NCBI GenBank assembly: GCA_037131775.1
Contig: JBAXQK010000003.1
Span: 12,439-76,438 of the forward strand
Source of the DNA: Candidatus Uhrbacteria bacterium
Lineage (GTDB): Bacteria > Patescibacteriota > Patescibacteriia > UBA9934 > GWF2-40-263
DNA length: 64,000 nt
Reading direction: 5' to 3'
Below, one piece after another: positions 37,683-56,246 of the stretch. Both the position numbers and the translations under genes were made by a program. How positions within the stretch are numbered: position 1 is the first letter of the stretch; each line of letters begins with the position of its first letter. Below the pieces are notes generated by a model. It saw only the letters and a list, made by a program, of their open reading frames with translations, searched no databases and was not told the DNA's origin.

Positions 37683-37690
37683 GCGATTGG

Positions 37691-39436: not shown

Positions 39437-39437
39437 A

Positions 39438-39893
39438 TTAAAAATCCACCCTTCCGAACCCGTTGACCGCGACCGCCTTCGACGTGCCGCGCGAATCCGT
39501 GATCGTCAGGGTTCCCGAGGTCGTTCTCCCGGTGCGCTTCGCAAAGTCGAACTCGCTCGTTCCAGAGACGACGAAGCTTGCCGGGATCGACACGGCCTGG
39601 TCGTACGTCGCCGTCCGCGTCGCGTACGTCGCCCCCTGGAACAGGATGACCTGTCCCGTCGACACCTTCACGCCCCACGCCGCGTCGTATAGGCCCGCCT
39701 GGGAACGCATCTGCGCGTACCGCGCCGTCGAGGCGAACTCACGGACGGCCGCGTCGAGATTGCCGCGCTGGAGGTATGTCTGCCCGAGCGGGAAGGTCGC
39801 GCCAACGAAGATGCCGGCGAGCGCAATAACGAAGATCATCTCCAGCAGCGTGAAGCCTTTTGGTCTGCGAATAACGTATGAGCTGCCAATCAC
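39438..39893 (-). CDS. Type IV prepilin-like protein (leader ...RRPKG|FTLLE)
   Basis: GFTLLEMIFVIALAGIF motif; 151 aa. Confidence 0.82.
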   Translation of the reverse strand: MIGSSYVIRRPKGFTLLEMIFVIALAGIFVGATFPLGQTYLQRGNLDAAVREFASTARYAQMRSQAGLYDAAWGVKVSTGQVILFQGATYATRTATYDQAVSIPASFVVSGTSEFDFAKRTGRTTSGTLTITDSRGTSKAVAVNGFGRVDF

Positions 39894-39920
39894 ACAAATT
39901 GCTTCGTATCGCTACGAATG

Positions 39921-41000
39921 TTACTCGATGCCTCCAACGAGGGTGTAGATGGGAAGGACGACGGCGAGGGCAAGGAACAGGACGCCGACGCCCATGACGA
40001 GGAGGAGAAGCGGCTCGAGAATGACGGTGAGGTTCTTCGAGGCCACGTCGGCCTTGAACTCGTACAGCTCGCCGATGCTGAGAAAGGCCTGCGGCACGGT
40101 ACCGGACTGCGCCGCGGTAACGATGAGCTGCTGCATCGGGATGGAAAGGACCGAACTGGTCCGCTTGTAGGAGCGGAACGCCTGCTCAAACGTGCTTCCC
40201 TCCTCCAGCCGGTCGGCGAGGTATTCGAAGAACTTCGAAAACGACGCGAACGTTGACGCGCGCGCGACGGAACGGACGGACTCGATCAGGTCGACGCCGG
40301 CGCCGAGAAGGGTGCCCAGCAGGTACCCGACGCGGCCGGTTTCCGAATCAATCAGCAGGCGCCCGATCGCCGGGGTGCGAAGCAGGAAGAAATGACCGAT
40401 GAACCGCAGCGGCGGTATGACGAAGCCGACCAGAAGGACGACGGCTGCCGTCCCCAGGATGGACGGGACCAGAACGGTCCAGTGGTCGCGCGTAAACGAA
40501 CCGACGGAGATGAGCGCGCTCGTCACGAACGGCAACGGCATGTTCAGCGACGAGAAGGTGGTGGCAAGCTGCGGAAGGAGAAAAAACAGCACCCAGGATC
40601 CGACGGCCGCCCCGAGGATGATCACGAACGAGGGATAGGCCATGGCCCCGATGATCTTGGATCGGAACATGCGGTCCTTCTGCCGCTGGAGAGCGAGGAT
40701 GTGCAGGTTCTGGATGAGCCGGCCGGTCTCCTCGCCGATGCGGACGAGCGAGACGGTCTGGCTCGTGAACAGGCACGTGTTGTCCAGGGCGCGCCACACC
40801 GGGTCCCCGTTCTCCACGTCCTCGACCATCCGTCGCACGAGCTTCCGGAGTCGCCGACTCTTCGTCTCCGCGGAGATGGCATTCAGCGCGGCCAGGATGT
40901 CCATGCCGGAACTCAACAAAACCGAAAGATTGTCCACGAGATATTCCTTCTCGCTTCCAAGGCCGAACGTGTGAAAAAAGGATGCCTTCTTTTTCGGCAT
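39921..41000 (-). CDS. pilC: Type IV pilus assembly platform protein PilC (GspF family)
   Basis: 359 aa; duplicated GspF domains with 3 TM segments. Confidence 0.88.
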   Translation of the reverse strand: MPKKKASFFHTFGLGSEKEYLVDNLSVLLSSGMDILAALNAISAETKSRRLRKLVRRMVEDVENGDPVWRALDNTCLFTSQTVSLVRIGEETGRLIQNLHILALQRQKDRMFRSKIIGAMAYPSFVIILGAAVGSWVLFFLLPQLATTFSSLNMPLPFVTSALISVGSFTRDHWTVLVPSILGTAAVVLLVGFVIPPLRFIGHFFLLRTPAIGRLLIDSETGRVGYLLGTLLGAGVDLIESVRSVARASTFASFSKFFEYLADRLEEGSTFEQAFRSYKRTSSVLSIPMQQLIVTAAQSGTVPQAFLSIGELYEFKADVASKNLTVILEPLLLLVMGVGVLFLALAVVLPIYTLVGGIE

Positions 41001-41004
41001 AGGA

Positions 41005-42702
41005 TTAGGACGCTTCGGGCGGCGCGACGACGCGAAGCAGCTCGTCGATGGTGATCACGCCATTGATCACCTTGTCGACGCCGTCAAGGAACATCGGCCT
41101 GGTTCCGGACGCGACCGCGGAGGCCATCACGTCCTTGGCGCTCGGCCGGCGCATCACGAGGTCGCGCAGTTCCGGCGTGGCCTGAATGAACTCGAACACG
41201 CCGATGCGCCCCTTGTATCCGGAATTCGCGCAGGCGGAACATCCCTTGCCCTGGTAAAGCGTCACCGTGGCCCCCGGAAAGTACTTCGCCGCGTCGGGAT
41301 ACTTCTCCGCGAGCTGCGCCTGGCTCATTTCCGTGCCATAGCGGCAGGTCTCGCACGTCTTGCGGGCTAGGCGCTGGGCCACGATCAGCTCGACGGTAGA
41401 TGACAGCAGGAACGGCTCCACGCCCATGTCCACCAGGCGCGGAATGGCCGAGGCGGCGTCGTTGGCATGGAAGGTCGTGAGCAGCATGTGGCCGGTCAGC
41501 GCGGCGTTGACCGCGATCTCGGCGGTCTCCTGGTCGCGTACCTCTCCCACGAGGATGATGTCCGGGTCCTGGCGCACGATGGACCGAAGGCCCTTGGAAA
41601 AGGTCAGGTTGGTCTGGAGGTTCACCTGGATGTGGTTCACGCCCATGATCTTGTACTCGACCGGGTCCTCGATGGTGGAAATGTTCACGTCGGGGCGGTT
41701 CAAGAACTTCACGGCCGCGTACAGCGTCGTGGTCTTTCCCGATCCGGTCGGCCCGATCACGAGGATCATCCCGAACGGCTTCTCCGCCGAGGCGGTGAGC
41801 TGTCGCTGCAGCGCCGGCGAAAGACCGAGGTCCGTGAGCTGATATCCGCGCATGTACTCCGACAGGAGGCGCATGACGATCTTCTCGCCGTCCACGAGCG
41901 GAACGACGGAGACGCGAACGTCCACGACCTGGTTGGCGAGATGGTAACGGATGGCCCCGTCCTGCGCCGAATAGTGCTCGTCGGTTCGGAGATGCGCCTG
42001 CACCTTGACGCGGTTCAGAACGTTTTCGTACAGCTCCTTGCTCAGGCGGCCGGCCTCCTCGAGCAGGCCGTCCACGCGGAACCGGATCAGCACGTCCTTC
42101 TCGCGCGGCTCGAAATGGATGTCGGACGCGCGAAACGTGACCGCGTCGAGCATGATCTCGTCCACCACTTCCGGGGCCACCTTTCCCTTCTCCGCCACGA
42201 TCTTCGCGAAGCGCGTATCCAATGCCTTGCGGTAGTGCGCGAACGCCGCCTCCAGGTCTTCCGGAAGCGTATATGCCAGATTGACGGTCTTTCCTGGGAA
42301 ATGCGAGCGAAAATCGTCCGTCATCTCAATCTGCGGGCGGTCGGTCGCGATGATCACCTCCGTCGGCGCGTCGCGAAAAATCACGCGCCGGTCGCGACGC
42401 GCGAACTCCTCCGGGATGCGCAGCACCTCCTCCTTGGTGGGAGGGTGCGAATTGAGGTCGGCGTACGGAACGCCGTAGTGCTCGGCGATCGCCTGGCCGA
42501 ACAGGTCCTTGGTGATGATGCCCGACGAGAAGAGCGCGTCGAGCGAATCGGCGCTCGTCGCCTTTGCCTCCGCTTCCACCTTCGCGAGCGCGTCGGCGGT
42601 CAGGTAGCTCTCCTCGACGAGAATTTCCTGCCACGTCTTTTGAGGCGCCGGCGCCGCGGCGGGGACGACCTCATTTTTTTTCCTCCTCAGTAACATATGC
42701 AT
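41005..42702 (-). CDS. pilB: Type IV pilus assembly ATPase PilB (GspE family)
   Basis: Walker A GPTGSGKTTTLYA, Asp box, His box, tetracysteine CETCRYG...CSAC. Confidence 0.92.
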   Translation of the reverse strand: MHMLLRRKKNEVVPAAAPAPQKTWQEILVEESYLTADALAKVEAEAKATSADSLDALFSSGIITKDLFGQAIAEHYGVPYADLNSHPPTKEEVLRIPEEFARRDRRVIFRDAPTEVIIATDRPQIEMTDDFRSHFPGKTVNLAYTLPEDLEAAFAHYRKALDTRFAKIVAEKGKVAPEVVDEIMLDAVTFRASDIHFEPREKDVLIRFRVDGLLEEAGRLSKELYENVLNRVKVQAHLRTDEHYSAQDGAIRYHLANQVVDVRVSVVPLVDGEKIVMRLLSEYMRGYQLTDLGLSPALQRQLTASAEKPFGMILVIGPTGSGKTTTLYAAVKFLNRPDVNISTIEDPVEYKIMGVNHIQVNLQTNLTFSKGLRSIVRQDPDIILVGEVRDQETAEIAVNAALTGHMLLTTFHANDAASAIPRLVDMGVEPFLLSSTVELIVAQRLARKTCETCRYGTEMSQAQLAEKYPDAAKYFPGATVTLYQGKGCSACANSGYKGRIGVFEFIQATPELRDLVMRRPSAKDVMASAVASGTRPMFLDGVDKVINGVITIDELLRVVAPPEAS

Positions 42703-43341: not shown

Positions 43342-43725
43342 CTAGGGATTTTCCGCGAGGACTTCCTTGACCATGTTCGCCAGGTCGTCGATGGAAATCT
43401 CCGTCTTGATCAGGAACTTGGTCGCCCCGAGCTTTTCGCACTGCACGCGGTCCTCGTCCTGGCCGAGGTTGGTCATGACCACGATCGGCACGCCCGCGAG
43501 CGACTTTTCCTTCGCGGCCTTGCGGAGGAATTCCAGACCGTCCATTCCCGGCATGATGATGTCGAGCAGGATCAGGTCCGGCATCTGCTCGCGGATCCGA
43601 ACGAATGCCTCCTTCCCGTCCGAGGCCGACGCGACGTCGTACCCCTCCGAGAGCAGCTTGGCCTGGTAGATCGCCTGGATATCGACGTTGTCCTCGGTGA
43701 TAAGGATGTGCGCTTTTGTTGGCAT
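43342..43725 (-). CDS. Stand-alone response regulator receiver
   Basis: MPTKAHILITEDNVDIQAIY...LLDIIMPGMDG...; ORF-track N-extension rejected. Confidence 0.82.
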   Translation of the reverse strand: MPTKAHILITEDNVDIQAIYQAKLLSEGYDVASASDGKEAFVRIREQMPDLILLDIIMPGMDGLEFLRKAAKEKSLAGVPIVVMTNLGQDEDRVQCEKLGATKFLIKTEISIDDLANMVKEVLAENP

Positions 43726-43747
43726 AGGATGATGAGATATCGGATCC

Positions 43748-43758
43748 AGTATAGCACA
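43748..43758 (-). promoter_or_regulatory. Extended -10 element TGTGCTATACT (minus strand) about 23 nt upstream of the receiver ATG
   Basis: Same motif as the pilA/pilB promoters. Confidence 0.4.
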
Positions 43759-43772
43759 GATTCGCAAAGACG

Positions 43773-44771
43773 TTAGTGGGATACGGCGGAGATGGTCACG
43801 GAACCCGTGCAGGTTCCGGAGACGCCTGAGTCCGGGATGGAAATATTCCAATAGATAGGCTCGGACGGAACGGTCGCGCCATGGCGGTATCCGACGCCCA
43901 GAGGAACGATGGACGGAACGGCGGTCAGCGAAACCGATCCGGAACCTCCGTAATGGTTCGGCACGACGGACCACTGCTGGCGTCTGCTCGGGACGGCGCC
44001 GATCCCGCCGTTATGGACGCAATCCATGGTTCCTCCATACCCGGGCGCCCCGGGCGCCGTCGAGTACGAAACTTCCGCGTCCGATTCGTCGTTCCCCTCC
44101 TGGGAGATGACATGGGCGAACTCATTCGTTTCGTCGGTGGATTCTCCGACCGAAAGGATTCCATAGTTGACGGAGTTGGGAACATGAAGCGCCAAGAGCG
44201 TCTGGATCTCGCGAGTAAGCGACGCGTTTGTCGCCTGCGCGCCCGCGCGGTCGAAGACGGTGACGCTTGCGACCCAGTGATCGTCTGGAAACTCACCGCC
44301 GGCAACCGTACTGTCCGCGAAGTACCAAAGGTCCAGCGGACAGCTGTACCGACGCTGCAGACTCGTTACACCGTCCGATGACAGCTCGCAATCAAAGACC
44401 TTGTAACAGTCATTCCCGTCATTTTCGACGCAACCGCCCGCGCCGGCGACGCCGGACCGGTAAAATACCGAGTCCACATGATCGATCTGGTCGCCCGAGT
44501 TGTTATCCTGAACGACGCCGTTCAGGTAAACGGTCTTCGTGCCGCCAGGCACGAGACTATTGATCCCACCGGAATATTCTTCCGATCCAAACGCGGAATT
44601 GCTGAGGCGGACGGAGGAAACGAACGGGGGCGCGTTTGCAAGAAGGATCGACGTGCCGACTGTTTGAGCCTCGGAATCCGTTTGGACGAGCAGCAATGCC
44701 GCCAGACCGCAAAGAACGAGAATGGCAGAGCCGAAAGCGACGGTGCGAAACGGAAAGATGTTCGGGCTCAT
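43773..44771 (-). CDS. Secreted Cys-containing protein, paralog family member 2 (ends GTCTGSVTISAVSH)
   Basis: Signal peptide; family blocks TKTVYLNG, FYRSG, CxxxxxDC, YSCPLDLWYFADS, NYGILSVG. Confidence 0.72.
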   Translation of the reverse strand: MSPNIFPFRTVAFGSAILVLCGLAALLLVQTDSEAQTVGTSILLANAPPFVSSVRLSNSAFGSEEYSGGINSLVPGGTKTVYLNGVVQDNNSGDQIDHVDSVFYRSGVAGAGGCVENDGNDCYKVFDCELSSDGVTSLQRRYSCPLDLWYFADSTVAGGEFPDDHWVASVTVFDRAGAQATNASLTREIQTLLALHVPNSVNYGILSVGESTDETNEFAHVISQEGNDESDAEVSYSTAPGAPGYGGTMDCVHNGGIGAVPSRRQQWSVVPNHYGGSGSVSLTAVPSIVPLGVGYRHGATVPSEPIYWNISIPDSGVSGTCTGSVTISAVSH

Positions 44772-44789
44772 ACGGGAAGGCGATTCAAT

Positions 44790-45836
44790 CTAACGGCTTG
44801 TCTTTGCAATGATCGTAACTGTCCCGGAACACGCGCCCGCCACGCCAGAAGTCGGAACCCGCACTTCGTTCCGCAGCACGACCGCCTTTGGCGACGACGG
44901 ATCGGTCTGCAGCGGAACATTCAGTTCCGCGACATGGGTGACGGACGATCCTTCGTCGACGTAGGCCTCCATCCCGATTCCGTCAAACCCTGCGTCCGTC
45001 GATTCCCCGTCGACGCCAACGCCGAACTGAAGGTTCGACACGGGAACGATCCCCGTGTCGCAGGACATGTCCGTCGCATAGACGTACGCATCCTGCGTAT
45101 CGTTCGCGGCCTGTCCGACAAGGATGTCCTCCGTGCCCACGGAAGTGTCGCCCTCGTATCCAAGCGACCTGGAACCGTAGTCGATGGATGACGGCATGCT
45201 CAGGCCGAGGAAGGCGTTGATCTCCTTGTCCAGATGCGCGACCGCGGATCCGGCGCCGTCCGCGTCCAGCGCGAGAACCTCCCATTTCCAAACGTACCCG
45301 TTCACCGTCGCGCTCGGTCCGCCGGCCGTATAGCTCGCAAATGCTCGCAGGTCGATCTGACACTCATACACGACGGTAAGGCCGGAAGGATCCGACGCAT
45401 CCCGCTCGAACACGCACTCCGGAACCATTCCGTCGGATGACGCCCAATAACAGACATGTTCCGTACCCGTGCACCGCGAGACGACCGGACGCGCATACGA
45501 GATGGGATCTCGGTCGCTTCTTCGCGCCTGCGCGTAAATTTTTTGAACGTCCTCCCATCCGTTCGCGTCGGAAATTCTTCCGTTCAGATAGACCGTAAGG
45601 CCAACGCCCGGAACGATGGTGTCAATGTTCCCGGCAAAGTCGTCGGAAAGCGAAAATCCCGAATCGAGGCTGATGTGCTCCTCCGTCACGACCGGCGCCG
45701 CGTTGACGAGCCACATCAGCATGTCGACGGTTTCGGCCTCTGAGGAAACCACCCGGACGACGGATGTGAGGACGCAAACAAGCGCCACCCACAGGACGAT
45801 CCCAAAAAAAACGCGTGACTGCTCTTCGTTCGGCAT
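44790..45836 (-). CDS. Secreted Cys-containing protein, paralog family member 3 (ends GACSGTVTIIAKTSR)
   Basis: Signal peptide; family blocks LTVYLNG, YECQIDLRAFASY, DYGSRSLG. Confidence 0.72.
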   Translation of the reverse strand: MPNEEQSRVFFGIVLWVALVCVLTSVVRVVSSEAETVDMLMWLVNAAPVVTEEHISLDSGFSLSDDFAGNIDTIVPGVGLTVYLNGRISDANGWEDVQKIYAQARRSDRDPISYARPVVSRCTGTEHVCYWASSDGMVPECVFERDASDPSGLTVVYECQIDLRAFASYTAGGPSATVNGYVWKWEVLALDADGAGSAVAHLDKEINAFLGLSMPSSIDYGSRSLGYEGDTSVGTEDILVGQAANDTQDAYVYATDMSCDTGIVPVSNLQFGVGVDGESTDAGFDGIGMEAYVDEGSSVTHVAELNVPLQTDPSSPKAVVLRNEVRVPTSGVAGACSGTVTIIAKTSR

Positions 45837-45868
45837 GCCTGTGATAGATCAGGGTTCCGTTTCGGATA

Positions 45869-45879
45869 GTATAGCACAA
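45869..45879 (-). promoter_or_regulatory. Extended -10 element TGTGCTATACT (minus strand) upstream of paralog 3
   Basis: Motif recurrence; about 33 nt before the ATG at 45836. Confidence 0.4.
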
Positions 45880-45912
45880 AAAGCCGCCGAGCTTGCGCGC
45901 GGCGGCTTTTTG
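45878..45912. terminator. Bidirectional terminator (gccgccg-agcttgcgcg-cggcggc with A5/T5 flanks)
   Basis: Follows the 45926..46165 gene on the minus strand. Confidence 0.55.
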
Positions 45913-45925
45913 TCAGGCCCTTTGC

Positions 45926-46165
45926 CTACTTCACGTTGACCTTCATGTCGACGTTGTCCTGGACGATCTCCAGCTTCGTGCCGACCCCGGAGTTTGGCGG
46001 CAGCGGAGTGGCAGCGTCAACGGTCTTTGAGGTTCCGGAGGATGCGGACGCGGAGATGGCGGGAGCGGGCGAAACGGACGACTTCTTTGTCGAAAGTCCG
46101 ACGAAGGTCATCGCGCTCGCAAGCGTGATCGCAACCGCCAGTCCAGCCAGTAGTTTCATGTTCAT
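45926..46165 (-). CDS. Small secreted protein (79 aa, signal peptide)
   Basis: MNMKLLAGLAVAITLASAMTFVGL...; sits between paralogs 3 and 4. Confidence 0.5.
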   Translation of the reverse strand: MNMKLLAGLAVAITLASAMTFVGLSTKKSSVSPAPAISASASSGTSKTVDAATPLPPNSGVGTKLEIVQDNVDMKVNVK

Positions 46166-46189
46166 AGGAACAGGCTTAGACGGCTTTGA

Positions 46190-47215
46190 TTAGCGATTGG
46201 TCTTCGCGGTGACAGTAACCGTTCCGGCACACGAACCCTTGACTCCCGACGACGGGACGGTGATCTCGTTGCGCCACATGACCTGCTTGGAGGATCCATT
46301 TGTCTGCGGGTCCAGGTTGAGCTCGATAACGTCCGTCGAGGCGGTGTTGATGTAGTTCACCATGCCCGTGCCGCCGTATCCGACGTCAGATCCTTCGCCG
46401 GCAACGCCGACGCCGTACTGAATGTTGGCGACCGGGATGGAACCAAGACCCGAGCAGGTCATGTCCGTCGCGCTGATGTAGGCGTCCTGGGTGTCGTTCG
46501 ATTTGTTCGCGATCGGCTGGTCCTCACCGCCGACGCTCGTGTCGCCGACGGATCCAAGCGACTTGTTTCCGAAGTTGATGTTGCCCGGGATTGCGAGCCC
46601 GAGATACGCGTTGAGCTCCTTGTCGACGTTCGAGATGCTCGAACCGTCATTTGCGGCGTCAATCGCGAGAACCTGCCACTTGTAGGTCTGGGCGTTGATC
46701 GCGGAGTTCGCGCCTCCGTTCGTGTACTCAAACCAGTACGGGAGATTGAACGCACAGCTGTAGTTGACCGTGTTCCCGGATCCGCCGTAGAGGGAACAGA
46801 GGGGGGATCCGCCATCGGACATGGCGATCAAACAGTCGAACTGGTTCGGGGTGCAGTTGGTGAACGCAGGCTTCGAGTAGGAAAGCAAGGTGCCGTCCGT
46901 GCTGAGCGCCACGGAGGCGACCACCTTGGTGACGTCCGCGTATCCGTTGAAGTCCGTGATCACGCCGTTGACGTAGACGGTCGCTCCCATGCCGGCAACC
47001 ATCGTGTTGATGTTGCCGCCCCAGAAGTTCGAGTTCGTGTTCGCGGCGTTGCTGAGGAATTCCGACGTGACGGTAGGAGCGTCGTTGTTAACGCCAAGGG
47101 TCATGTTGGTCGGACCGGCCTGCGAGTTGATCATGACGAGGGAGGCAACCACGAACACGGCGATCATGACGAGCGAGATCCCGAGAATGTAGTGCAATGT
47201 CTTGGACTCTTGCAT
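46190..47215 (-). CDS. Secreted Cys-containing protein, paralog family member 4 (ends GSCAGTVTVTAKTNR)
   Basis: Start at MQESKTLHYILGISLVMIAV (TM/signal); family blocks ATVYVNG, YSCAFNLPYWFEYT, NFGNKSLG. Confidence 0.7.
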   Translation of the reverse strand: MQESKTLHYILGISLVMIAVFVVASLVMINSQAGPTNMTLGVNNDAPTVTSEFLSNAANTNSNFWGGNINTMVAGMGATVYVNGVITDFNGYADVTKVVASVALSTDGTLLSYSKPAFTNCTPNQFDCLIAMSDGGSPLCSLYGGSGNTVNYSCAFNLPYWFEYTNGGANSAINAQTYKWQVLAIDAANDGSSISNVDKELNAYLGLAIPGNINFGNKSLGSVGDTSVGGEDQPIANKSNDTQDAYISATDMTCSGLGSIPVANIQYGVGVAGEGSDVGYGGTGMVNYINTASTDVIELNLDPQTNGSSKQVMWRNEITVPSSGVKGSCAGTVTVTAKTNR

Positions 47216-47306
47216 ACGGATAGAAGAATTATTTAGAGAACGAACGCGTGCCTCAAATTTTCTGCACTGTTGTGGGGGGGTTAATGAATTATGATTCTGC
47301 AATTGT

Positions 47307-47319
47307 GGATAACTGACGA
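47307..47319 (-). promoter_or_regulatory. Extended -10-like element GTGTGGTATACTG (minus strand) about 90 nt upstream of paralog 4
   Basis: Variant of the TGTGCTATACT motif. Confidence 0.3.
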
Positions 47320-47353
47320 CAGTATACCACACGGATTGCTCAGGGACCAGAAC

Positions 47354-48718
47354 TTACCATCGGCGTTCCGCATCGGAAGGGATCGGCGCGTCAGGAATCT
47401 TCTCCGCGGGCGGCACGGCGGCCGAACGGACCTCCGTCACGACGGGCGACGGCGACTGTTCCGTCGGACGAGCCTTCGCCGTCGCCTCCTTTCCATGACG
47501 CCGACGGCGAACGATGACGATCAGAAGGACGAAAAGGAGGATGACGACGGAAAGAACTCCGATTCCCACGTATGAGTTGAGCGTCTTCAACGCCACGGCC
47601 TCGTTGACCGTAAGAACAACATCTTTTGACAGCGTCTTCTTGTTGCCAAACTTCACGTAGGTAGTCAGCGAGTACCGACCTGGATCCTTCGGATCAAGCA
47701 GGAGGGAAAGATTGGAGGATTCCCCCGGTCCGACGGAAACTTCCTCGCCGCGAATCAGGTCGACATACGCCCCGTCCTTGTACAGCTCCCCCATCAGCAG
47801 TCCGCTGATGACGATATCGCCGGTGTTGGAAAAGACCGCGTCGACCGGCACCTTCTCGCCGAGCTCAAACGAATCCTTCTTTGTCGAAACGGACACAAGC
47901 TCTCCGGACTGGGCCATGGTTCCCGGGGCGAACACGTTGAAGTCGAAGGACGTCAGCTCGCCGATCTGCTCCTTCTGCTCATTGAAGAACTTCGTCGTCA
48001 GGGAGTACGTGCCTTCCGGAAGACTCCGGTCGAGTTCGATCCGAACGTTGCCTTCCTTGCCCGGGCCAACGGAATCGAACTTGTCTGATTCCAACGAGTA
48101 GAGGATCTGGTCGGACGGATCGTTCTTGTTCGAGAACGCAAGCTCGGCACGGTACGGCTTCCAGTTGACGTTACCGGTATTCGCGAAGACGTACGTGACA
48201 AACGGATGGAGGTTTGACTCCGTGTCATCGACATGCGACGTCCTGATTTCAAAGGAGACAAGTTCCTTTCCGCTCACGGCAAAGTTTATTTCCAGCGCCA
48301 CCCCGGTAAGGACACCCATTCCCATCTGATCCCCGGTGGCCGCTCCACCCGCACCCACGCGCGAGTTCATGAACGACAGGACGCCCTTGTGGGAACCGGA
48401 CTGGGCAATGCCGGGATCGACCTGAAACGTATAGTCAATTCCGTCCATGCCGCTTGGAATAATGGCGGCCGGCTCAAATCTCAGATATTCCGCGGCGTCT
48501 CCAACGGCCAGGATATTCAGCTTCAGTTCCCCTTCCTGATCCGAACTCCGAAGGAGATGGACGGTGACGTTCTGCGGAATCCCCCGCATGACGTCTGGAA
48601 TTATGACCGACGACGGCGAGAGTCCGAGCGCAAGCGCGGGATGCGCGACCAGCAGGGCCATGGCGCACGCGAACGAAGCCGCGAGACTATTTTTGAGCAA
48701 GGAACGAGTCTTTGGCAT
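47354..48718 (-). CDS. Cell-surface protein, type I membrane topology (signal peptide, GLSP N-domain, C-terminal TM + RRRRH), paralog 1 of 3
   Basis: 454 aa; N-terminus LALGLSPSSVIIPDV shared with 49590 and 50498 proteins; C-terminal TM and basic stop-transfer. Confidence 0.68.
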   Translation of the reverse strand: MPKTRSLLKNSLAASFACAMALLVAHPALALGLSPSSVIIPDVMRGIPQNVTVHLLRSSDQEGELKLNILAVGDAAEYLRFEPAAIIPSGMDGIDYTFQVDPGIAQSGSHKGVLSFMNSRVGAGGAATGDQMGMGVLTGVALEINFAVSGKELVSFEIRTSHVDDTESNLHPFVTYVFANTGNVNWKPYRAELAFSNKNDPSDQILYSLESDKFDSVGPGKEGNVRIELDRSLPEGTYSLTTKFFNEQKEQIGELTSFDFNVFAPGTMAQSGELVSVSTKKDSFELGEKVPVDAVFSNTGDIVISGLLMGELYKDGAYVDLIRGEEVSVGPGESSNLSLLLDPKDPGRYSLTTYVKFGNKKTLSKDVVLTVNEAVALKTLNSYVGIGVLSVVILLFVLLIVIVRRRRHGKEATAKARPTEQSPSPVVTEVRSAAVPPAEKIPDAPIPSDAERRW

Positions 48719-48720: not shown

Positions 48721-49062
48721 CTATTTCGTTAGCACCACGATAAGAATAAGAATCGTCGTAATGAAAATGGCAAGAAGGACGCTTGTCTTGGTTCGGTCGG
48801 CCATCTTTGAATAGTCCGAGTACGACCTTGAGAAGGAACCGTCTTCCCTCCGCGGGTACAGCTTCTCGAACGCCTTCGATTTGTCTTCGAACAAGACGGT
48901 GGAAATCTGACGCGGCTTGTCCGTCATCAAAAACGCATGTGCGATCGTGGAAACAAGAAAGCCGACCGCGAATCCCCAGAACAGTGGGTAATCACCGATC
49001 CGCCTCAGCGTATCCCACGACGCGCCAAGCACGGCGCGCATTCCCAAGAAAAAATTTTGCAT
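48721..49062 (-). CDS. Hypothetical membrane protein (2 TM)
   Basis: 113 aa; low GC relative to genome. Confidence 0.5.
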   Translation of the reverse strand: MQNFFLGMRAVLGASWDTLRRIGDYPLFWGFAVGFLVSTIAHAFLMTDKPRQISTVLFEDKSKAFEKLYPRREDGSFSRSYSDYSKMADRTKTSVLLAIFITTILILIVVLTK

Positions 49063-49076: not shown

Positions 49077-49616
49077 GTGAGAATAGTATATCATGATTCC
49101 AATACTATGCTGCTCTCTTACCTGTGGAAAACATTTCGGCTCGCATCGTGTGCTGTCCTGATTATCCTGTTCGTGAGAACGTTCGTGATCGAGACGGGAC
49201 GCGTAAACGGCGTCTCCATGGAGAGCACGTATCTGGACAGCCAGACATTTTACATCAATAAATTTGCGCTGCTGCTTTCCACGCCGAAGCGCGGACAGAT
49301 CATTCAGTGCAAGGCTCCGAACGGCGAGTCGCTCCTCATCAAGCGCATCGTCGGGCTTCCGGGAGAAACCGTGCACATTCACGAGAACGAGGTCTCTATC
49401 ACGGACAGCCGGGGAAACCTGATCCGTCTAAACGAGACGTACCTGAAGCCGGGGTCCATCACGCAGACCTGGAACCACGAGCCCGGGGACTACCCGGTCC
49501 TTGGTCCGAACGAGTACTTCGTCATGGGGGACAACCGCCGGGAGAGCGGCGACTCTAGGCACTTCGGCCCCGTCCCGAGAGAAAACATCCTAGGGTTGGT
49601 TATCTCTCCGTTTTAA
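49077..49616 (+). CDS. lepB: Signal peptidase I (LepB-type Ser/Lys)
   Basis: Box B GVSMEST, box D IKRIVGLPGETV, box E VMGDNRRESGDSRHFGPV; start could alternatively be the Met at 49107. Confidence 0.85.
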   Translation: MRIVYHDSNTMLLSYLWKTFRLASCAVLIILFVRTFVIETGRVNGVSMESTYLDSQTFYINKFALLLSTPKRGQIIQCKAPNGESLLIKRIVGLPGETVHIHENEVSITDSRGNLIRLNETYLKPGSITQTWNHEPGDYPVLGPNEYFVMGDNRRESGDSRHFGPVPRENILGLVISPF

Positions 49617-50501
49617 CGCACGGCGCCGTCGAAACGTGCCGCCGAACGCGGCCAGGATGACGGCGGCAAGCGCCCCCGACGTCAGCACGACGAGCCGCTT
49701 TCGAAGCGTCGGCTGCAAAACCCAGAATGAGACGTCCTTTGTTACGCCGCCCACGGAAACCTCTGCCGTATATTTTCCCGACGGGAAGGATTCCGACAGG
49801 TCGAAGTCATAGGATTGCACGCTGGCCCCGCCAACGGGAATGTCGTCGGAGAGAAGGTATGTCTGGGCATTCACCGGCACCCCGTCCTTCGACACCACCA
49901 CGTGACTCTCGACCCCTTCGATCGGATTTTGACCCGCATTGACCAGGTCCCACGCCACGTGAAGGCGACGGCCGTTTCGAAGGGACGACTGGGTCACCCG
50001 CGGCACGCGAACGGAAATGTCCTTCATCAGCGTCGGATAATCGACGGCGCTCAGGACCACGTTCGATCCTGGACGATCCTGCACGGACAGGTGCACCTGA
50101 AACATGAGCCCCGCGATCACCTGTTGGCCACTGGCGGCCTGGTCACCGGGTGGGTCGAGGAGAAACTGAATCGTTTCGTCATATTCTCCCACGGGCAGAT
50201 CCAAGGAGCTGACCGTAAAGCGAAACGGGACAAAGTGCTCGCCGTCCGGAATGGTCACGCTCGCTGTACCGCCGATATCGATTGCGGCGGACTTCGTCAG
50301 TTCGGAGACATGAAACACCGACTCCCCCTCGGCATCCTGACGCGAAATCATAATTTCCTCCGTCAGCGTGTCGCCGCGATACACCACCAGGTTCATCTCT
50401 CCCGGAGAGAGGCCGATTGTCTGCGCGGCGGACGATGGCGGGACCAGCACGAACATGCCTAGCAAAACGAGGACGGAGAGGAACGGAAGGCGGAATGTCA
50501 T
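49590..50501 (-). CDS. Cell-surface protein paralog 2 of 3 (signal peptide, IGLSPGEMNLVV N-domain, C-terminal TM + RRRR)
   Basis: 303 aa; 3' end overlaps the lepB 3' end convergently (27 nt). Confidence 0.68.
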   Translation of the reverse strand: MTFRLPFLSVLVLLGMFVLVPPSSAAQTIGLSPGEMNLVVYRGDTLTEEIMISRQDAEGESVFHVSELTKSAAIDIGGTASVTIPDGEHFVPFRFTVSSLDLPVGEYDETIQFLLDPPGDQAASGQQVIAGLMFQVHLSVQDRPGSNVVLSAVDYPTLMKDISVRVPRVTQSSLRNGRRLHVAWDLVNAGQNPIEGVESHVVVSKDGVPVNAQTYLLSDDIPVGGASVQSYDFDLSESFPSGKYTAEVSVGGVTKDVSFWVLQPTLRKRLVVLTSGALAAVILAAFGGTFRRRRALKRRDNQP

Positions 50502-52123
50502 ACAGGATCAATTTCAGGGTGAACGATCGATTCGTCTTCCTCCTCGTTCTTTCCTCGTGAGAACGCGAGCGCGACGATGGCGATGGCGGCCAGAAAAAAC
50601 GAGAGGACAAGCATCAGGCAGATGGGGAATTTTTTCTTCGTCAGGCACGGGCAGACCGTCATCAGGGACGCCTGTTCCGGTGCGGCAGGAACGCTGGCCG
50701 CGACGAGGAAGCGACCGGAGAGGTCTTCTGTCCGAACCGCGTCCGATACCCGCATCTGTCCGTTTACCGAATCCACGCCACCAAACTCCAGCGAGGTCGT
50801 TGCCTCCCGCTTCGGACGGAACTGGAACGCGGCGACATATCCGCGCGTCCCGGAGAAAGCGACGTCCGACGCGCCAATGAGGCGAATGGAACCGGCGCCC
50901 GCCTTTCCGTATTCCCCTCGGACGTACGGAAAGATGGACCCGAGCGTGCTGACGTCAACGAGATCGAGGACGTCCGTGTCGTACCGGAATGTGACGTCAG
51001 CCGCACGGACGCCGGACGGGCCCGTGTCGGCAAGAAGATAGAACGTCACGAGATCGTCGGGCGTCTTCTCGGCGGCCGCGAGCACGAACTCGTATTTGCC
51101 CAGAGCGCCCCCCTCCTCGAAGTAGAAAGTTTCCTGCTCGGTCGCAAGCGCCGGACCGGGCGTCACGGGAGGAACGGACGGTGCCGCATCCTTCGGGGCG
51201 CCAACGAGCTCGGCGGCCGCCGCGATATCCAGCAGGGTGAACGCGCAATCCGCGTTCAGGTCGCACGTCAGCGCGCAGGTCGCGCCAAGATACTCGCTCA
51301 TGAGAGTCGTGACGTCGGCCGAGCCCTGGATTCCATCGCCGTTCCGGTCGAGCGAAAATCCAGCGTTATCGCATGCCGCTCCGGAGGCAGGCGCTCCTTC
51401 CTGCGATACCGAGCCTGTCGGCCCCGCGGGAGTGACAGTCGGGACAACGACGGGAGCCTGCGATACGGACGGCGTTCCCGTCGTATCCGTGAAACCCGTG
51501 TCACTGCCGAACGATCCGGACGAACCAGTGTCCGCGGGAGTCTGCGCAATGGATCCGCCGGTGCCATCCGTCGTTGTGGTGTTCGTCGACGGGGTCGTGG
51601 GAGTGGTCGTTGGCGTCGACGGGGTCGGTTCCTGCGTGATCCCGCCGCCACCGCCGCCCGTCGGGTTTCCACCTCCGGACCCCCGCGCCCTGACGGAAAA
51701 CCTTACCGTCGCCGTTACGCCGCGTTGAACGGCGTTGCCGGACCCGTCGCCGGAACCGGAAACGTCCGTCAGAAGGAACGCGATGTACTGCCGGTAATCC
51801 CCTGTCTCAATGTCCGCGCCAGGCGAGACGACGAACTTGTATTCCACCGCGTCTTGGTCCGGCCCCATCACGATCGTATTTTCTCCCGTGACGCATCCGC
51901 CGCATTCCCCGTGAAATCCAACCTCGAAGACCAGCGCGCCGACTTCCCCGTCCCCGCGCTGAAGCCCGACCGTCTCGCGGACGGAGGAAGAGGAGGACAG
52001 CGTCCGGGAAACCGTGACCTCCGGCGGGGAGAGGCCGAACGCGAAGGACGGATGCGCAGACGCAAAAAACGAACTGGCGACAAGGAAAATTACGGCGGCT
52101 AACTTTTGATGAAACGGGCGCAT
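50498..52123 (-). CDS. Cell-surface protein paralog 3 of 3 with Thr/Pro-rich linker, dockerin-like double repeat, cohesin-like C-domain and C-terminal TM
   Basis: FGLSPPEVTVS N-domain; TPSTPTTTPTTPSTNTTTT linker; DRNGDGIQGSADVTTLMSEYLG + DLNADCAFTLLDIAAAAELVG; cohesin-like VTFRYDTDVLDLVDV...; ATGA overlap with the paralog 2 start. Confidence 0.72.
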   Translation of the reverse strand: MRPFHQKLAAVIFLVASSFFASAHPSFAFGLSPPEVTVSRTLSSSSSVRETVGLQRGDGEVGALVFEVGFHGECGGCVTGENTIVMGPDQDAVEYKFVVSPGADIETGDYRQYIAFLLTDVSGSGDGSGNAVQRGVTATVRFSVRARGSGGGNPTGGGGGGITQEPTPSTPTTTPTTPSTNTTTTDGTGGSIAQTPADTGSSGSFGSDTGFTDTTGTPSVSQAPVVVPTVTPAGPTGSVSQEGAPASGAACDNAGFSLDRNGDGIQGSADVTTLMSEYLGATCALTCDLNADCAFTLLDIAAAAELVGAPKDAAPSVPPVTPGPALATEQETFYFEEGGALGKYEFVLAAAEKTPDDLVTFYLLADTGPSGVRAADVTFRYDTDVLDLVDVSTLGSIFPYVRGEYGKAGAGSIRLIGASDVAFSGTRGYVAAFQFRPKREATTSLEFGGVDSVNGQMRVSDAVRTEDLSGRFLVAASVPAAPEQASLMTVCPCLTKKKFPICLMLVLSFFLAAIAIVALAFSRGKNEEEDESIVHPEIDPV

Positions 52124-52139
52124 ATCCGACGCAAGTATA

Positions 52140-52862
52140 TCACATTTTCCTTGCGTCCCTCAGCTTCCTGCGCAAAATCCAGAGATGCTTGAAGTTATCC
52201 CAGGCGGTTGCAAAAATTTTCACCGACGTCTTCCTCCTCGCGTCGCGTCCTTCCTCCCAACGCACGGGAATGTTCGCCACGACGAACCCGCAACGCTCGG
52301 CATGGGCAAGAATCTCCGTGTCGAAAAAGAATCCTTCGTGCGTCCAGAGGGGAAAAAGTACCTGTGCCGCGTCTCGCCGGACCGCCTTGAATCCGCACTG
52401 CAGGTCCTGCGCGGAGATGGAAACCAGGACGCGCGCGATCAGCCGATACACCCGCGAAACGATTCGGCGGGACAGCGACCGTCTCACGACGGAATCGCGA
52501 TGAAACCTGGACCCCGCCGCAACCCCGCGTCGCGTCGCCCCGTCGATAAGCGCGGGGACGTCCCGCAGGTCGGTCGCCAAATCCGCGTCCATGAACGCGT
52601 ACACGTCGGCATCCCGTGACTTCCACGCCTCTCGGATCGCGAGCCCCTTCCCTTTTTGCTGGAGAGGAAACAATCCGACGCGGGAATGGTCGCAGGCGAC
52701 GGACCGGACGATCTCGCACGTCCGGTCAACGGACCCGTTGTCCGCAACCAAAATCATCCAGTCGTAGTCCCTCAGCAAGCCGTCAAACGCAGCGACGGAC
52801 TGACGCAGGCTGTTCTCGATCACCAGCTCCTCGTTGTACGCGGGAATGACCATCAGCACCTT
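52140..52862 (-). CDS. GT2-family glycosyltransferase, polyprenol-phosphate sugar synthase-like (DPM1/Ppm-like)
   Basis: MKVLMVIPAYNEE..., DAD motif (FMDADLATD), QxxRW-like region; start at the internal Met 52862. Confidence 0.82.
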   Translation of the reverse strand, partial: KVLMVIPAYNEELVIENSLRQSVAAFDGLLRDYDWMILVADNGSVDRTCEIVRSVACDHSRVGLFPLQQKGKGLAIREAWKSRDADVYAFMDADLATDLRDVPALIDGATRRGVAAGSRFHRDSVVRRSLSRRIVSRVYRLIARVLVSISAQDLQCGFKAVRRDAAQVLFPLWTHEGFFFDTEILAHAERCGFVVANIPVRWEEGRDARRKTSVKIFATAWDNFKHLWILRRKLRDARKM

Positions 52863-54430
52863 CATAGCGTTGAAATTGGAGTGTAAATCTGCGACCACTC
52901 GTCCTCGTACGCCTTTTCATACTGTCCGGACTCCTCCGCGTGAGCGCCGATCGGAGAGGGGTTGCGACGATCGATCAGGATGGCCGACGCGTGAAAGACC
53001 GAGCGGATTTTTTCCACCTCCTTGTCGTCGCCGTTGCACAGCGCATACCAGACGCGATACTTCTCGCTGTCATTCTCATACATGAGACGCGGATCCAGTC
53101 CGACGAGAAGGTACTGTGCGTCATCCAGGTAGAAGTACATCATCGATGAGTCCCATTGCGTATTGAAGACGATCGCGCCAGGCGGGAGGTTCGACCGGAG
53201 CCAGTCCGCGCTTCCGCGGTAACGCGCCTCGGTGAACACGCCGCCCTTCTCAATGGAGTGACTGACGCCACGAATAAAGAGCATCGCCCCAACAGACAGG
53301 CAGGCAATCGCGACGACCGCGTATGATTGCCATCGGAAGCGCGAGGCCGTCCGATTTCCACGGAGATCTTTTTTCAACTGAATGATCCCCTGCCGCAAGT
53401 ACGGCCAGACCATTGACAGGACCGCGCCGGCGGACAGAATGACGAGGGGGACGAAGTACTCCGCATATCGCATCGACCGCAGCGCGAAGACGAAAAAGAA
53501 CGTCGCAAAGAGCGTGAGCGTGAGCGCCGAACGAACGCGAGCCGGCGAGCGGTCGAGGAGCGAGGACGCTTTTGCGGGAAGGAGGAGTGCCGTGCCGACA
53601 AACGCGCAGATGAGGACCGGCATGTTCACAAGCACGAGCAGGATCCAGCTTCCGGCCTTCCACTCTACGCCGGCGGGGATCTCATGCGACCCGTCGATCC
53701 CGATTTTCACGCTGTCCGCGACGCTTGAAAGAACGTTCGTCGGGAAATACGGACTGACGACGAGACCGACCGCAATCCCGACGGCGAGCGCGATGCCCGT
53801 CTTCAGAGCGTCGTACCGCGCAAGGGGATCGTCTTCGCCCGGTCGCGCAATGCGACGCGCGGCAGCATCCGCGATCACGAAACAAAAATACCCCACGAGA
53901 ACGATCGGCCAGCCGTGATAGAGCCAGACAAAGGCCGCCAACGCGACAACCAGCGTCTTGCGGCGAGATGTCAGCATCGCCCAGATGCAGAACAATAGGA
54001 AAACGACGGAAAGGGACGGCGCTCGCGGCATGGATACCCTTTGCAGAAAGTCGAATGAGAACGCGGTGGCAAACGTCAGCCATTCCGGATACGGGGAGCC
54101 GATCGATTTTAAAAATCGATAAATCGCATAGAACGCCAGCAACCCGAATACAACGGCCGATTCCTTCATCCCAACGATCGGGTCGAACAGCGTCACGAAC
54201 GGGATCAGCAAAACGTGATAGAGCAGATGCACGTCCACGTACTGGTCGCGCCAGGTCGTTTCCTGCAGCCATGGAAACGAGTGGATGAACCCATGGTCCC
54301 GTATCGTGAGCGCCATCTTGGCGTGATAAAACGAGTCCGCGTCCGGAAACGACGGCCGCGCATTGATGGCAACGAGCATCACGGCGATCGTGGCAAAGAC
54401 GAATATTGTGGACCAGGAGGGTCGATGCAT
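52862..54430 (-). CDS. GT-C-fold polytopic membrane glycosyltransferase (PMT/ArnT-like), tentative
   Basis: 522 aa with >10 TM segments and N-terminal DxD-like loop (FPDADSFYH); stop overlaps the GT2 start. Confidence 0.65.
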   Translation of the reverse strand: MHRPSWSTIFVFATIAVMLVAINARPSFPDADSFYHAKMALTIRDHGFIHSFPWLQETTWRDQYVDVHLLYHVLLIPFVTLFDPIVGMKESAVVFGLLAFYAIYRFLKSIGSPYPEWLTFATAFSFDFLQRVSMPRAPSLSVVFLLFCIWAMLTSRRKTLVVALAAFVWLYHGWPIVLVGYFCFVIADAAARRIARPGEDDPLARYDALKTGIALAVGIAVGLVVSPYFPTNVLSSVADSVKIGIDGSHEIPAGVEWKAGSWILLVLVNMPVLICAFVGTALLLPAKASSLLDRSPARVRSALTLTLFATFFFVFALRSMRYAEYFVPLVILSAGAVLSMVWPYLRQGIIQLKKDLRGNRTASRFRWQSYAVVAIACLSVGAMLFIRGVSHSIEKGGVFTEARYRGSADWLRSNLPPGAIVFNTQWDSSMMYFYLDDAQYLLVGLDPRLMYENDSEKYRVWYALCNGDDKEVEKIRSVFHASAILIDRRNPSPIGAHAEESGQYEKAYEDEWSQIYTPISTL

Positions 54431-54441: not shown

Positions 54442-55014
54442 CTATTTGAATTCCCCTTCCAGCACATGCCCGGACGGATCCGGGTTCCCGTCCTTCGGCT
54501 CCCTGGTCACGACGACCCGAACGTACCCGTCATACTTCCCCGCCGCGCTGGCCCATTCGAGCCCCCAGGTTCCGTCCTCGTTTCCGACGAATGACCCGAC
54601 GGAGACAAAATCGTACGGAACCTGACGAACGAGCCATCCCTCGTAGGATTCCTTTTCCGGGTCGATCGGCGGGAAGGACGACGCCTTGATCTTCAAAAGC
54701 ATCTGCCCGTCGACGGTCTCGCGGATCGTCGTCCCCGTCGCGGATCCGCCCGACACGTCGCGCAGCGTCGCCTCGCGGACCGTCCCGGACATGGATACGG
54801 CCAGGTCGGCGGCAGAGACAGCCGTCGGCGACATCACGTTTGCGATCGTGTTCGTGGCGACGACATCCGTCGACGGTTTCGGCCGGAACCGGAACCACCA
54901 GATTCCGCACGCGAACAGCCCCGCGATCGCGACAATGATCAGCGCGATGACGACAACCGTCCCGGTGACGCGCGGGGAACGGCGGCGGGCGTGGAATTGG
55001 GAACGGTATTGCAT
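54442..55014 (-). CDS. Hypothetical membrane-anchored protein
   Basis: Start at MQYRSQFHARRR...; one TM then ~150-aa soluble domain. Confidence 0.5.
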   Translation of the reverse strand: MQYRSQFHARRRSPRVTGTVVVIALIIVAIAGLFACGIWWFRFRPKPSTDVVATNTIANVMSPTAVSAADLAVSMSGTVREATLRDVSGGSATGTTIRETVDGQMLLKIKASSFPPIDPEKESYEGWLVRQVPYDFVSVGSFVGNEDGTWGLEWASAAGKYDGYVRVVVTREPKDGNPDPSGHVLEGEFK

Positions 55015-55022
55015 AGAAGATG

Positions 55023-55105
55023 GGGATATGAACCTGCGAACTGGCTGCGAACCTACTAAGTCTGAACTGACAACGAAACGTTCGTGGGTTCGCAGGTTCG
55101 TATCC
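55023..55105. mobile_element. Degenerate copy of an ~82-bp MITE-like palindromic element (TIR GGATAYGAACCTGCGAAC)
   Basis: Termini match the 58896-58977 element; 9 nt upstream of the ATG at 55014. Confidence 0.55.
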
Positions 55106-55109
55106 AATT

Positions 55110-56246
55110 TCAACCCTTCACAGCCTCCGCCACGATCCGCGCGGAATCGACGTCGAACAGCGACGGGAGTATTCGCTCCGCGGTCGGGGTCTCGACGGTC
55201 GCGGCGAGGGCGCGGGCGGCGGCGAGGAACATGGCCGTCGTGAACGCTGGAATCTTGCCCTCGAGGACGCCGAGGAACAGGCCGGGGTACGCGAGCACGT
55301 TGTTCACCTGGTTCGGATAGTCGCTGCGCCCCGTCGCGATCACGGCCGCGCCGCCGGCCTTCGCGACCTCGGGCGTCACCTCGGGGACGGGATTCGCCAT
55401 GGCGAACACGATCGCGCCCGGCGCCATCGAGCGGACCATCTCCTCGGAAACGATTCCCGGCGCGCTGACGCCAAGGAACACGTCCGAGCCAGCCAGCGCA
55501 TCACCGAGCGACCCGAGGCGGCCGTCCGGGTTGATCCGCGCCGCGAGTTCGTCCTTCTGCGCGTTCATCCCCTCGCGTCCGACGGCGATCATCCCCTTCG
55601 AGTCGCACATCGCGACGTTCTTCGCGCCCGCCTCAAGCAGCAGACGAGCCGATGCGACGCCAGCCGCGCCGACGCCCGAGATGACGATTTTCGCCGTCTC
55701 GATCGACTTATCCACAACCCTCAGCGCGTTCAAAACTCCGGCAAGGACGACAACCGCCGTCCCGTGCTGGTCGTCGTGCATCACCGGAATGTCCAGCTCC
55801 GCGGCAAGCCTCTTCTCAATCTCAAAGCATTTCGGCGCCGCGATGTCCTCGAGGTGGATCGCCCCGAATCCCGGCGCGATGTTCTTGATCGTCGCGATAA
55901 TCTCCTCCGTATCCTGCGTCGCGAGACAGATCGGAAACGCGTCCAGCCCGGCGAACCGCTTGAACAGAATCGCCTTCCCTTCCATCACCGGCATCCCGGC
56001 TTCCGGTCCGATGTTGCCAAGGCCGAGGACGGCGGACCCGTCCGTCACGACTGCGACGAAGCGACCCTTGATCGTCAGTTCCCGCGCCAGCGACTTGTCC
56101 GCCGCGATCGCGAGACAAACGGCCGCGACGCCCGGCGTGTACGCCGTCGCAAGGTCGTCGCTCGTTTGCAACGGCACGGTCGAGGCGATCTCAAGCTTGC
56201 CGCGCTTTTCGCGGTGGAGTTTCAGGGAGAGTTCGGAGTAGTTCAT
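55110..56246 (-). CDS. maeA: NAD(P)-dependent malic enzyme (short form)
   Basis: Malic enzyme N- and NAD-binding domains (GVGAAGVASARLL Rossmann motif, DDQHGTAVVVLAG). Confidence 0.88.
   Translation of the reverse strand: MNYSELSLKLHREKRGKLEIASTVPLQTSDDLATAYTPGVAAVCLAIAADKSLARELTIKGRFVAVVTDGSAVLGLGNIGPEAGMPVMEGKAILFKRFAGLDAFPICLATQDTEEIIATIKNIAPGFGAIHLEDIAAPKCFEIEKRLAAELDIPVMHDDQHGTAVVVLAGVLNALRVVDKSIETAKIVISGVGAAGVASARLLLEAGAKNVAMCDSKGMIAVGREGMNAQKDELAARINPDGRLGSLGDALAGSDVFLGVSAPGIVSEEMVRSMAPGAIVFAMANPVPEVTPEVAKAGGAAVIATGRSDYPNQVNNVLAYPGLFLGVLEGKIPAFTTAMFLAAARALAATVETPTAERILPSLFDVDSARIVAEAVKG

Follow-up and report, generated by a model that had tools for sequence, protein, structure and literature searches.

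Which molecules outside the membrane would receive the sugar that a lipid-sugar synthase and its partner membrane glycosyltransferase are predicted to deliver? The question is raised by a locus in a stretch of 64,000 nucleotides (nt) from a Candidatus Uhrbacteria bacterium (contig JBAXQK010000003.1), called the window throughout at its full length, where a GT2 enzyme and a GT-C fold membrane protein are encoded directly ahead of two anchored surface proteins. Patescibacteria are believed to rely on contact of their cell surface with hosts, and to our knowledge their surface glycobiology is essentially unstudied. The initial annotation of this DNA proposed an O-mannosylation cassette of the actinobacterial Ppm/Pmt type, dedicated to the two adjacent proteins. 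We favor as the best explanation of the whole, at a rough probability of 0.42, that the two enzymes are a general GT2 and GT-C pair for glycosylating surface proteins, which would not be a cassette for its two neighbors in particular. The region studied lies on the minus strand of the window, the G+C content of which is about 60%, and the loci of relatives used for comparison carry the labels L001-L096.

A lipid-sugar synthase paired with a GT-C membrane protein

The pair consists of two overlapping genes:

52862-54430, minus strand: GT-C fold membrane glycosyltransferase, 522 residues, about 11-13 transmembrane (TM) helices and a 120-residue C-terminal extracytoplasmic alpha/beta domain
52140-52865, minus strand: GT2 polyprenol-phosphate sugar synthase (DPM1/ArnC/AglJ-like), 241 residues, without TM helix

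All four minus-strand genes first described here (the GT-C, the GT2 and two surface proteins) are present, and we regard them as genuine and not chance reading frames because each has homologues in other metagenomes. Their layout stands with two small corrections: the GT2 gene starts at 52865 instead of 52862, and the gap between its stop (52140) and the ATG of the following surface protein (52123) is 16 nt instead of 17. Read directly from the sequence, the GT2 start codon (52865-52863) overlaps the GT-C stop codon (52864-52862) as ATGA.

The assignment of the GT2 as a DPM1-like enzyme held when its relatives were considered. The protein matches PF00535 at 1.8e-18, and its top five NCBIfam models, all matched below their equivalog cut-offs, are ArnC, AglJ (the second best), PpgS, PgfS and a haloarchaeal dolichyl-phosphate hexose transferase. 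Its four best sequence matches in the PDB are all polyprenol-phosphate glycosyltransferases, headed by the Dol-P-Man synthase of P. furiosus (5mlz, 1.4e-12) and followed by ArnC. The catalytic domains of DPM1/Ppm1-type enzymes likewise have no TM helices. Judged from these similarities, a DPM1/ArnC-like polyprenol-phosphate monosaccharide synthase is a well supported assignment. MraY, MurG and FtsW are also encoded within the window, which means that the organism employs a polyprenol phosphate as carrier.

The two enzymes form a conserved unit, as had been proposed. Among 80 species loci, 72 were informative for pairing; counting GT2 homologues at E < 1e-30, a close homologue of the window enzyme lies immediately downstream of the GT-C gene in 25 of the 72, while in 11 others it is found on the same strand no more than 8 kb away. 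A sugar donor carried on polyprenol phosphate, followed by transfer outside the cytoplasm, is very probably the enzymatic logic. The soluble or peripheral GT2 would take a single hexose, possibly mannose, from a nucleotide sugar and attach it to polyprenol phosphate on the cytoplasmic side of the membrane; the lipid-linked sugar would presumably then be flipped to the outer face; and the 522-residue GT-C, to judge from its modeled fold, would transfer it to an acceptor outside the membrane. In one relative at 45% identity (L096, 9001-12120) the GT-C gene is duplicated in tandem (520 and 511 residues) ahead of the GT2, and a further 523-residue polytopic protein is encoded there on the opposite strand.

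Fold and kinship of the membrane transferase

Family models say little about the GT-C. No Pfam glycosyltransferase family matches the window protein or any of 48 relatives, even at E values up to 10; specifically, none of the 48 family members matches the PMT (PF02366), PMT_4TMC (PF16192), PF13231, STT3 (PF02516) or YfhO profiles. Membership of the YfhO family was rejected for this reason, and GT83/ArnT (PMT_2) was also set aside, as the combination of a PF13231 match with an ArnT-like periplasmic domain was not found. The sole sequence-family signal is a weak one to TIGR04154 (archaeo_STT3), no other transferase model being matched. The window protein aligns to it along residues 215-423 only, at 6e-6 and 24.8 bits where the cut-off is 450 bits, and 13 of the 48 family members match the model weakly, the best at 1.3e-8. 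Searching PDB sequences with the 48-member profile returned only a chance match to a Fab and no solved relative.

Structure is more informative. An AlphaFold2 model was built on the 48 sequences, with a predicted local distance difference test score (pLDDT) of 92.5, and its top Foldseek matches are human and yeast STT3 (STT3A/B), DPY19, AglB, ArnT and PglB. The C-terminal domain matches the core unit (CC) of AglB in fold. The model thus predicts a GT-C(A) transmembrane fold followed by a globular C-terminal core-unit domain, which is the architecture of GT66. This is in keeping with the GT-C-like character noticed at the outset.

Conservation over 202 family sequences picks out a near-invariant D30-P-D32-x-F-Y-H36 directly after TM1 (D30 94%, D32 99%), together with D66, H68 and H72. 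The motifs P227-x-F-P230, R321-x-x-E324-Y-x-x-P328 and G444-L-D446 are near-invariant, W426 is conserved in 97% and D427 in 83%, and G254-x-E256-W257 is invariant in a long external loop (pLDDT 77-87) that falls inside the stretch aligned to the STT3 model. R131 and K/R136 are invariant in what the AlphaFold2 helices suggest to be the external loop between TM3 and TM4. Catalysis would involve D30-P-D32 and H36 in external loop 1 together with G254-x-E256-W in the flexible external loop, and R131, K/R136 and R321 probably hold the phosphate.

In the actinobacterial Ppm1/Pmt systems, with which the pair was at first identified, a polyprenol-phosphate-hexose synthase and a GT-C act on Ser/Thr/Pro-rich regions of exported proteins. 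The logic of the two pairs would be the same, and the resemblance of the GT2 to Dol-P-Man synthase, the acidic motif in loop 1 and the Thr/Pro-rich linkers of nearby proteins would all suit an orthologous O-mannosylation (GT39) system. However, the GT-C is GT39 neither by hidden Markov model, given the 0 of 48 matches to PF02366, PF16192 and PF13231 noted above, nor by best structure: Pmt appears at Foldseek rank 25 with a partial alignment (338 residues aligned for Pmt4 versus 453 for STT3B) and lacks the AglB-type C-terminal domain. We therefore discard the GT39/PMT identity of the protein, and orthology of the pair to Ppm1/Pmt is very nearly out of the question. The D30-P-D32 motif is distinct from the Asp-Glu motif of PMT, and most GT-Cs have an acidic residue in loop 1.

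A second possibility follows from the structural neighbors, namely that the GT-C, as a divergent oligosaccharyltransferase of bacteria, N-glycosylates Asn residues of surface proteins in the manner of archaeal AglB, with the GT2 in the role of AglJ, which charges the lipid monophosphate. With AglB, STT3 and PglB (GT66) it shares the GT-C(A) fold, an acidic motif where external loop 1 begins, an Arg conserved close to the outer end of one of the late TM helices and the core-unit fold at the C terminus; the invariant E256 of the long flexible loop may correspond to the catalytic Glu that those enzymes have in the TIXE/SVSE motif of external loop 5. Archaeal STT3 is its only sequence-family match, W426-D427 lies roughly where WWD is expected, and AglJ ranks second among models for the GT2. 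The signature motifs of these enzymes (as defined in PMC3703281) are nevertheless missing across the 202 sequences, whether lost or never acquired. WWDYG is reduced to W426-D427, its flanks being D/S and D/E-F-P in place of W, Y and G; the DK/MI motif, by which those enzymes shape the Ser/Thr pocket, is absent, with position 457 being L in 41%, R in 31% and K in 9%, and D454 present in 53%; and the second DXD is absent from external loop 2 (TM3-TM4), which is basic, has no conserved acidic pair and carries R131 and K/R136 instead. An apparent DK motif in the window protein, D454-x-x-K457-x-x-x-W461, was rejected as it is not conserved in the family. The protein is also shorter, at 522 residues compared to 700-870, and its partner is a GT2 that charges a monosaccharide, as opposed to an oligosaccharide assembly pathway, genes for which are not seen nearby. 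N-x-S/T sequons in exported proteins of the window number 32 compared to 38.8 expected, though a single window makes this a weak test; the 380-residue protein described below has nine compared to 7.0 expected from its composition. With these motifs gone and sequons not enriched, N-glycosylation is unlikely.

We infer from this that the protein is a GT-C(A) enzyme closest to the AglB/STT3 branch, which would bind a monophosphate donor through Arg and Lys and not a diphosphate donor through a metal. A bolder proposal, to which we give low odds, is that the family is an offshoot of the STT3/AglB lineage spread across Patescibacteria, which has kept the transmembrane fold and core periplasmic unit of oligosaccharyltransferases while WWDYG and DK, which read the sequon, and DXD, which binds the metal, were replaced, and which transfers single sugars from polyprenol monophosphate onto surface proteins. 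Such an offshoot would stand, in evolution, between oligosaccharyltransferases and the GT-Cs that transfer monosaccharides, and would found a new CAZy family shaping the cell surface of these episymbiotic bacteria. Kinship with AglB, if true, would extend oligosaccharyltransferase history by a bacterial branch.

The family is large. A word-indexed search gave 58 matches, of which the named ones are all from Candidatus Uhrbacteria or the Patescibacteria group; relatives occur in 396 GTDB species genomes, mostly of Patescibacteria; and an exhaustive profile search found, among representatives of 50%-identity clusters, 3,795 with E no higher than 1e-3 and 1,877 with E no higher than 1e-30. No description of the family, or of protein glycosylation in Patescibacteria, turned up in a literature search, and an earlier genome paper on a related candidate phylum reports many unexplained copies of dolichol-phosphate mannosyltransferase (PMC4736985). 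The value of the finding lies in this large, unnamed family paired with lipid-sugar synthases, and in its possible oligosaccharyltransferase kinship; naming its acceptor would define a major envelope pathway of Patescibacteria. The window holds the simplest version, one GT-C and one GT2 beside candidate substrates, and is therefore a good starting point for reconstitution. Separately, arrays of T4SS_pilin genes (PF18895) adjoin GT-C paralogues in L005, L044, L063, L070 and many Patescibacteria loci; for instance, nine small three-TM genes of this kind lie beside GT-C paralogues at 11878-16178 of L001.

Surface proteins and the acceptor

The genes surrounding the pair are as follows:

54442-55113, minus strand: single-pass membrane protein with an RskA_C domain, anti-sigma-K-like (PF10099, 1.3e-8)
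50498-52123, minus strand: anchored surface protein, 541 residues (cohesin PF00963, 4.8e-5)
49590-50501, minus strand: anchored surface protein, 303 residues, recognized by paralogy, with weak Ig-like matches only
49077-49616, plus strand: signal peptidase I (PF10502, 1.8e-35; TIGR02227, 4.5e-33)
48721-49062, minus strand: two-TM protein, 113 residues, no family match
47354-48718, minus strand: third anchored surface protein, 454 residues, recognized by paralogy of its N-terminal domain (E 1e-8)
43773-47332, minus strand: three paralogous secreted or anchored proteins (380, 348 and 332 residues) and a 79-residue Ser/Thr-rich lipoprotein-like reading frame, no Pfam match

The RskA_C gene is 11 nt upstream of the GT-C gene. 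The genes of the 541- and 303-residue proteins overlap by ATGA, and that of signal peptidase I is convergent with the latter, overlapping its 3' end by 27 nt. The 16-nt space between the GT2 and the first surface gene holds no terminator, for which it is too small. Going down the minus strand from the enzyme pair, one meets a first convincing terminator, a strong intrinsic one with a 17-bp stem and then a T run, at 43334-43298, downstream of a response-regulator reading frame (43342-43974). A promoter scan of the region gave sites at chance level and was not used.

Each of the two surface proteins directly after the GT2 starts with a signal peptide and ends with a TM helix, after which comes a basic tail. 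The 541-residue protein consists of the signal peptide, an N-terminal domain shared with its paralogs, a Gly-rich and Thr/Pro-rich linker, a pair of dockerin-like repeats, a cohesin-like domain and the C-terminal TM anchor; Dockerin_1 is matched at 2.4e-6 in its L008 orthologue. The Thr/Pro-rich linker noticed initially is indeed there, at residues 157-196 (GGGGGITQEPTPSTPTTTPTTPSTNTTTTDGTGG). In all orthologues inspected, a disordered Ser/Thr/Pro-rich linker separates the N-terminal domain from the dockerin-like repeats; this linker is not conserved in sequence. In the 303-residue protein the signal peptide and shared domain are followed by a second beta-rich domain, the TM helix and an RRRR tail; it has no Ser/Thr/Pro-rich linker. 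The two had been called paralogous, which is correct for the N-terminal domain of about 120 residues (31% identity, E 3e-8) and does not extend beyond it. The 454-residue protein is a third paralog of this domain, which is followed there by more Ig-like repeats, then a C-terminal TM helix and finally a cytoplasmic tail. An S-layer-like coat had also been suggested; we do not retain it, as the one match that bears on it is that of the 454-residue protein to the PACE-CTERM S-layer model NF033506, which is weak (1.6e-6) and far below the cut-off.

The best-conserved core of this surface block is formed by signal peptidase I (55-62% identical in L088-L091), the 113-residue protein (46-64% identical in the same loci) and the 454-residue protein. 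The genes of the 380-, 348- and 332-residue proteins and the 79-residue frame continue the block in the same direction and are kept downstream in L006, L088, L089 and L094-L096. Directly after the predicted cleavage site the 541-, 303- and 454-residue paralogs, and their orthologues in L008, L089 and L092, have the sequence G-(L/I)-(S/A/T)-P, a common feature that suggests processing by a dedicated peptidase, by analogy with SipW and TasA.

The acceptors of the sugar would be Ser and Thr in disordered Ser/Thr/Pro-rich linkers of anchored proteins, that of the 541-residue protein among them. This is the least certain step of the scheme: O-glycosylation of surface proteins is our leading guess for the acceptor, held tentatively, with an envelope glycopolymer as a close rival. 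Several observations speak for a protein. STT3/AglB and DPY19, to which the GT-C is closest in structure, are enzymes with peptide acceptors. The surface genes follow the pair after only 16 nt with no terminator, and the adjacency recurs in six further loci at GT-C identities of at least 45%; within this lineage the two enzyme genes are translationally coupled. The position of the linker is kept in orthologues of the 541-residue protein, and other exported proteins in the window also bear Ser/Thr/Pro-rich linkers. One of these had already been pointed out and was found as described: the 390-residue protein at 17332-18504 (minus strand) has an N-terminal TM helix, a Ser/Thr/Pro-rich stretch of 54 residues, which is a further candidate for a glycosylated linker, and a globular domain with no Pfam match. 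A secreted cupredoxin-like protein (c9) and a DUF4349 protein, encoded upstream in distant Uhrbacteria, were considered as substrates and dropped, as no consistent link was seen.

A comparable arrangement has been tested in streptococci, where each of the pairs GtrB/PgtC2 and PgfS/PgfM1 glycosylates disordered, Ser/Thr-rich stretches in membrane-associated proteins, and where the pgf cluster of S. mutans also encodes its adhesin substrates (PMC12041528). The combination of a GT2 lipid-sugar synthase with a GT-C is the same, and the window GT2 weakly matches PgfS (8.3e-10). The streptococcal GT-Cs, however, are of the YfhO family, which the family studied here does not match, and the window has neither an epimerase nor a second GT-C.

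The conserved gene order extends from the RskA_C protein through the GT-C, the GT2, proteins of about 535 and 300 residues, signal peptidase and the 113-residue protein to a protein of about 441 residues. It is found in full in a relative at 95% identity and in five others at 45-56% GT-C identity (L008, L093-L096). The RskA_C neighbor is kept throughout the 45-56% clade and is present in L006 and L093-L096; a gene for a sigma factor was not noted next to it.

Against a surface-protein acceptor, and against parts of the scheme as a whole, stand a number of findings. The linker is present in one of the three paralogous surface proteins, the 541-residue one. The clade that keeps the adjacency also keeps a malic enzyme gene wherever the upstream sequence suffices, and in some members UvrD helicase and NUDIX genes; as unrelated neighbors are kept too, adjacency of the pair and the surface genes may be plain collinearity. 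In Uhrbacteria at 35-40% GT-C identity the pair lies among pentose-phosphate genes, between rpiB-rpe and a split transketolase, with no surface block. In other classes, again with no surface block, the GT-C heads clusters with GT87/MptA-like, PMT_2, DUF2079 and unnamed polytopic transferases of about 410 and 540 residues. The reverse comparison, made from the 454-residue protein, gave five metagenome loci, three of which end before the upstream region and one of which (L092) has the homologue of this protein alone. In L089, the only one of the five with the surface block complete upstream, an orthologue of about 500 residues comes directly after a histidine-kinase gene, with neither GT2 nor GT-C. 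Such clade-limited adjacency, together with L089, indicates that the enzymes and the surface block are two separately conserved modules juxtaposed in one lineage. The C-terminal fold of the GT-C is also common to AftD and AftA, which act on polysaccharides. The reading of the sugar depends on a gene family (c5, 41 members) that recurs beside the GT-C in other genomes, mostly immediately upstream, and of which one member (in L005) has a Pfam annotation: it carries the phosphoglucose/phosphomannose isomerase domain bact-PGI_C (PF10432), which hints at a hexose such as mannose. Lastly, no GtrA, SMR or MATE flippase family was recognized among the neighbors scanned, a result for the window and not for the rest of the genome, and two small membrane proteins considered in this context, the 113-residue protein and a 193-residue four-TM protein (14936-15517), match no family.

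These results bear directly on two earlier statements. A cassette dedicated to the adjacent proteins does not survive them, as the four-gene synteny occurs in the collinear clade only, is lost at GT-C identities of 40% or less, and the surface block stands alone in L089. The initial annotation had also held that the link to surface proteins would lose its support if the GT-C were a lipid- or polysaccharide-directed enzyme such as ArnT or an O-antigen polymerase and the synteny were not conserved: the synteny is not broadly conserved, while the GT-C is classed neither as ArnT nor as an O-antigen polymerase.

Several of the same findings would be expected if the pair acts on an envelope glycopolymer or lipoglycan, whether lipomannan-like, teichoic-acid-like or a wall polysaccharide, where the GT-C would add or prime a sugar on the polymer and its adjacency to surface genes would be incidental. 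We consider this possible, if short of even odds. In most of the 80 species loci the GT-C is the first gene of a multi-transferase cluster, with c5 recurring nearby; besides methyltransferases, such clusters contain as many as three GT2s and another three to five polytopic transferases (L005, L028, L043, L045, L083 and most of L025-L087), and look like an assembly line for an extracytoplasmic glycan. Their layout recalls the assembly logic of mycobacterial lipomannan and arabinan, and the surface-protein adjacency, being confined to one collinear clade and absent in L089, also speaks for this reading. The known three-component systems (GtrA/GtrB/Gtr*, GT136; PMC11127046), in which a GT2 and a GT-C use a lipid-linked monosaccharide outside the membrane as the pair would, also mostly decorate glycans, namely O antigens and wall polymers, though their GT-C families are unrelated in sequence to the present one and no gene like GtrA, SMR or MATE is recognized near the pair. 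In the clade of the window, however, no additional GT-C, GT87 or polymer-export genes adjoin the pair; the window has no cluster of the AftA/AftD/MptA kind, and its GT-C is much smaller than AftD and has no carbohydrate-binding modules. The best relatives in sequence and fold, AglB/STT3 and DPY19, act on peptides, and clusters of several GT-Cs could equally build or extend glycans linked to proteins.

Wider surroundings of the pair

Type IV pilus genes lie nearby on the minus strand (36803-42702), including a PilB-like ATPase (41005-42702) and a PilC-like platform protein (39921-41000), with open reading frames having pilin-like N-termini at 37691-39436 and 36803-37198. This places the enzyme pair at one end of an island of cell-surface genes spanning about 18 kb. 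Two more proteins encoded on the minus strand further away were noted, a 559-residue protein with ice-binding-like, DUF7507 and SpaA-like domains (26909-28588), and one of 541 residues with five MopE-type metal-binding repeats (8055-9680).

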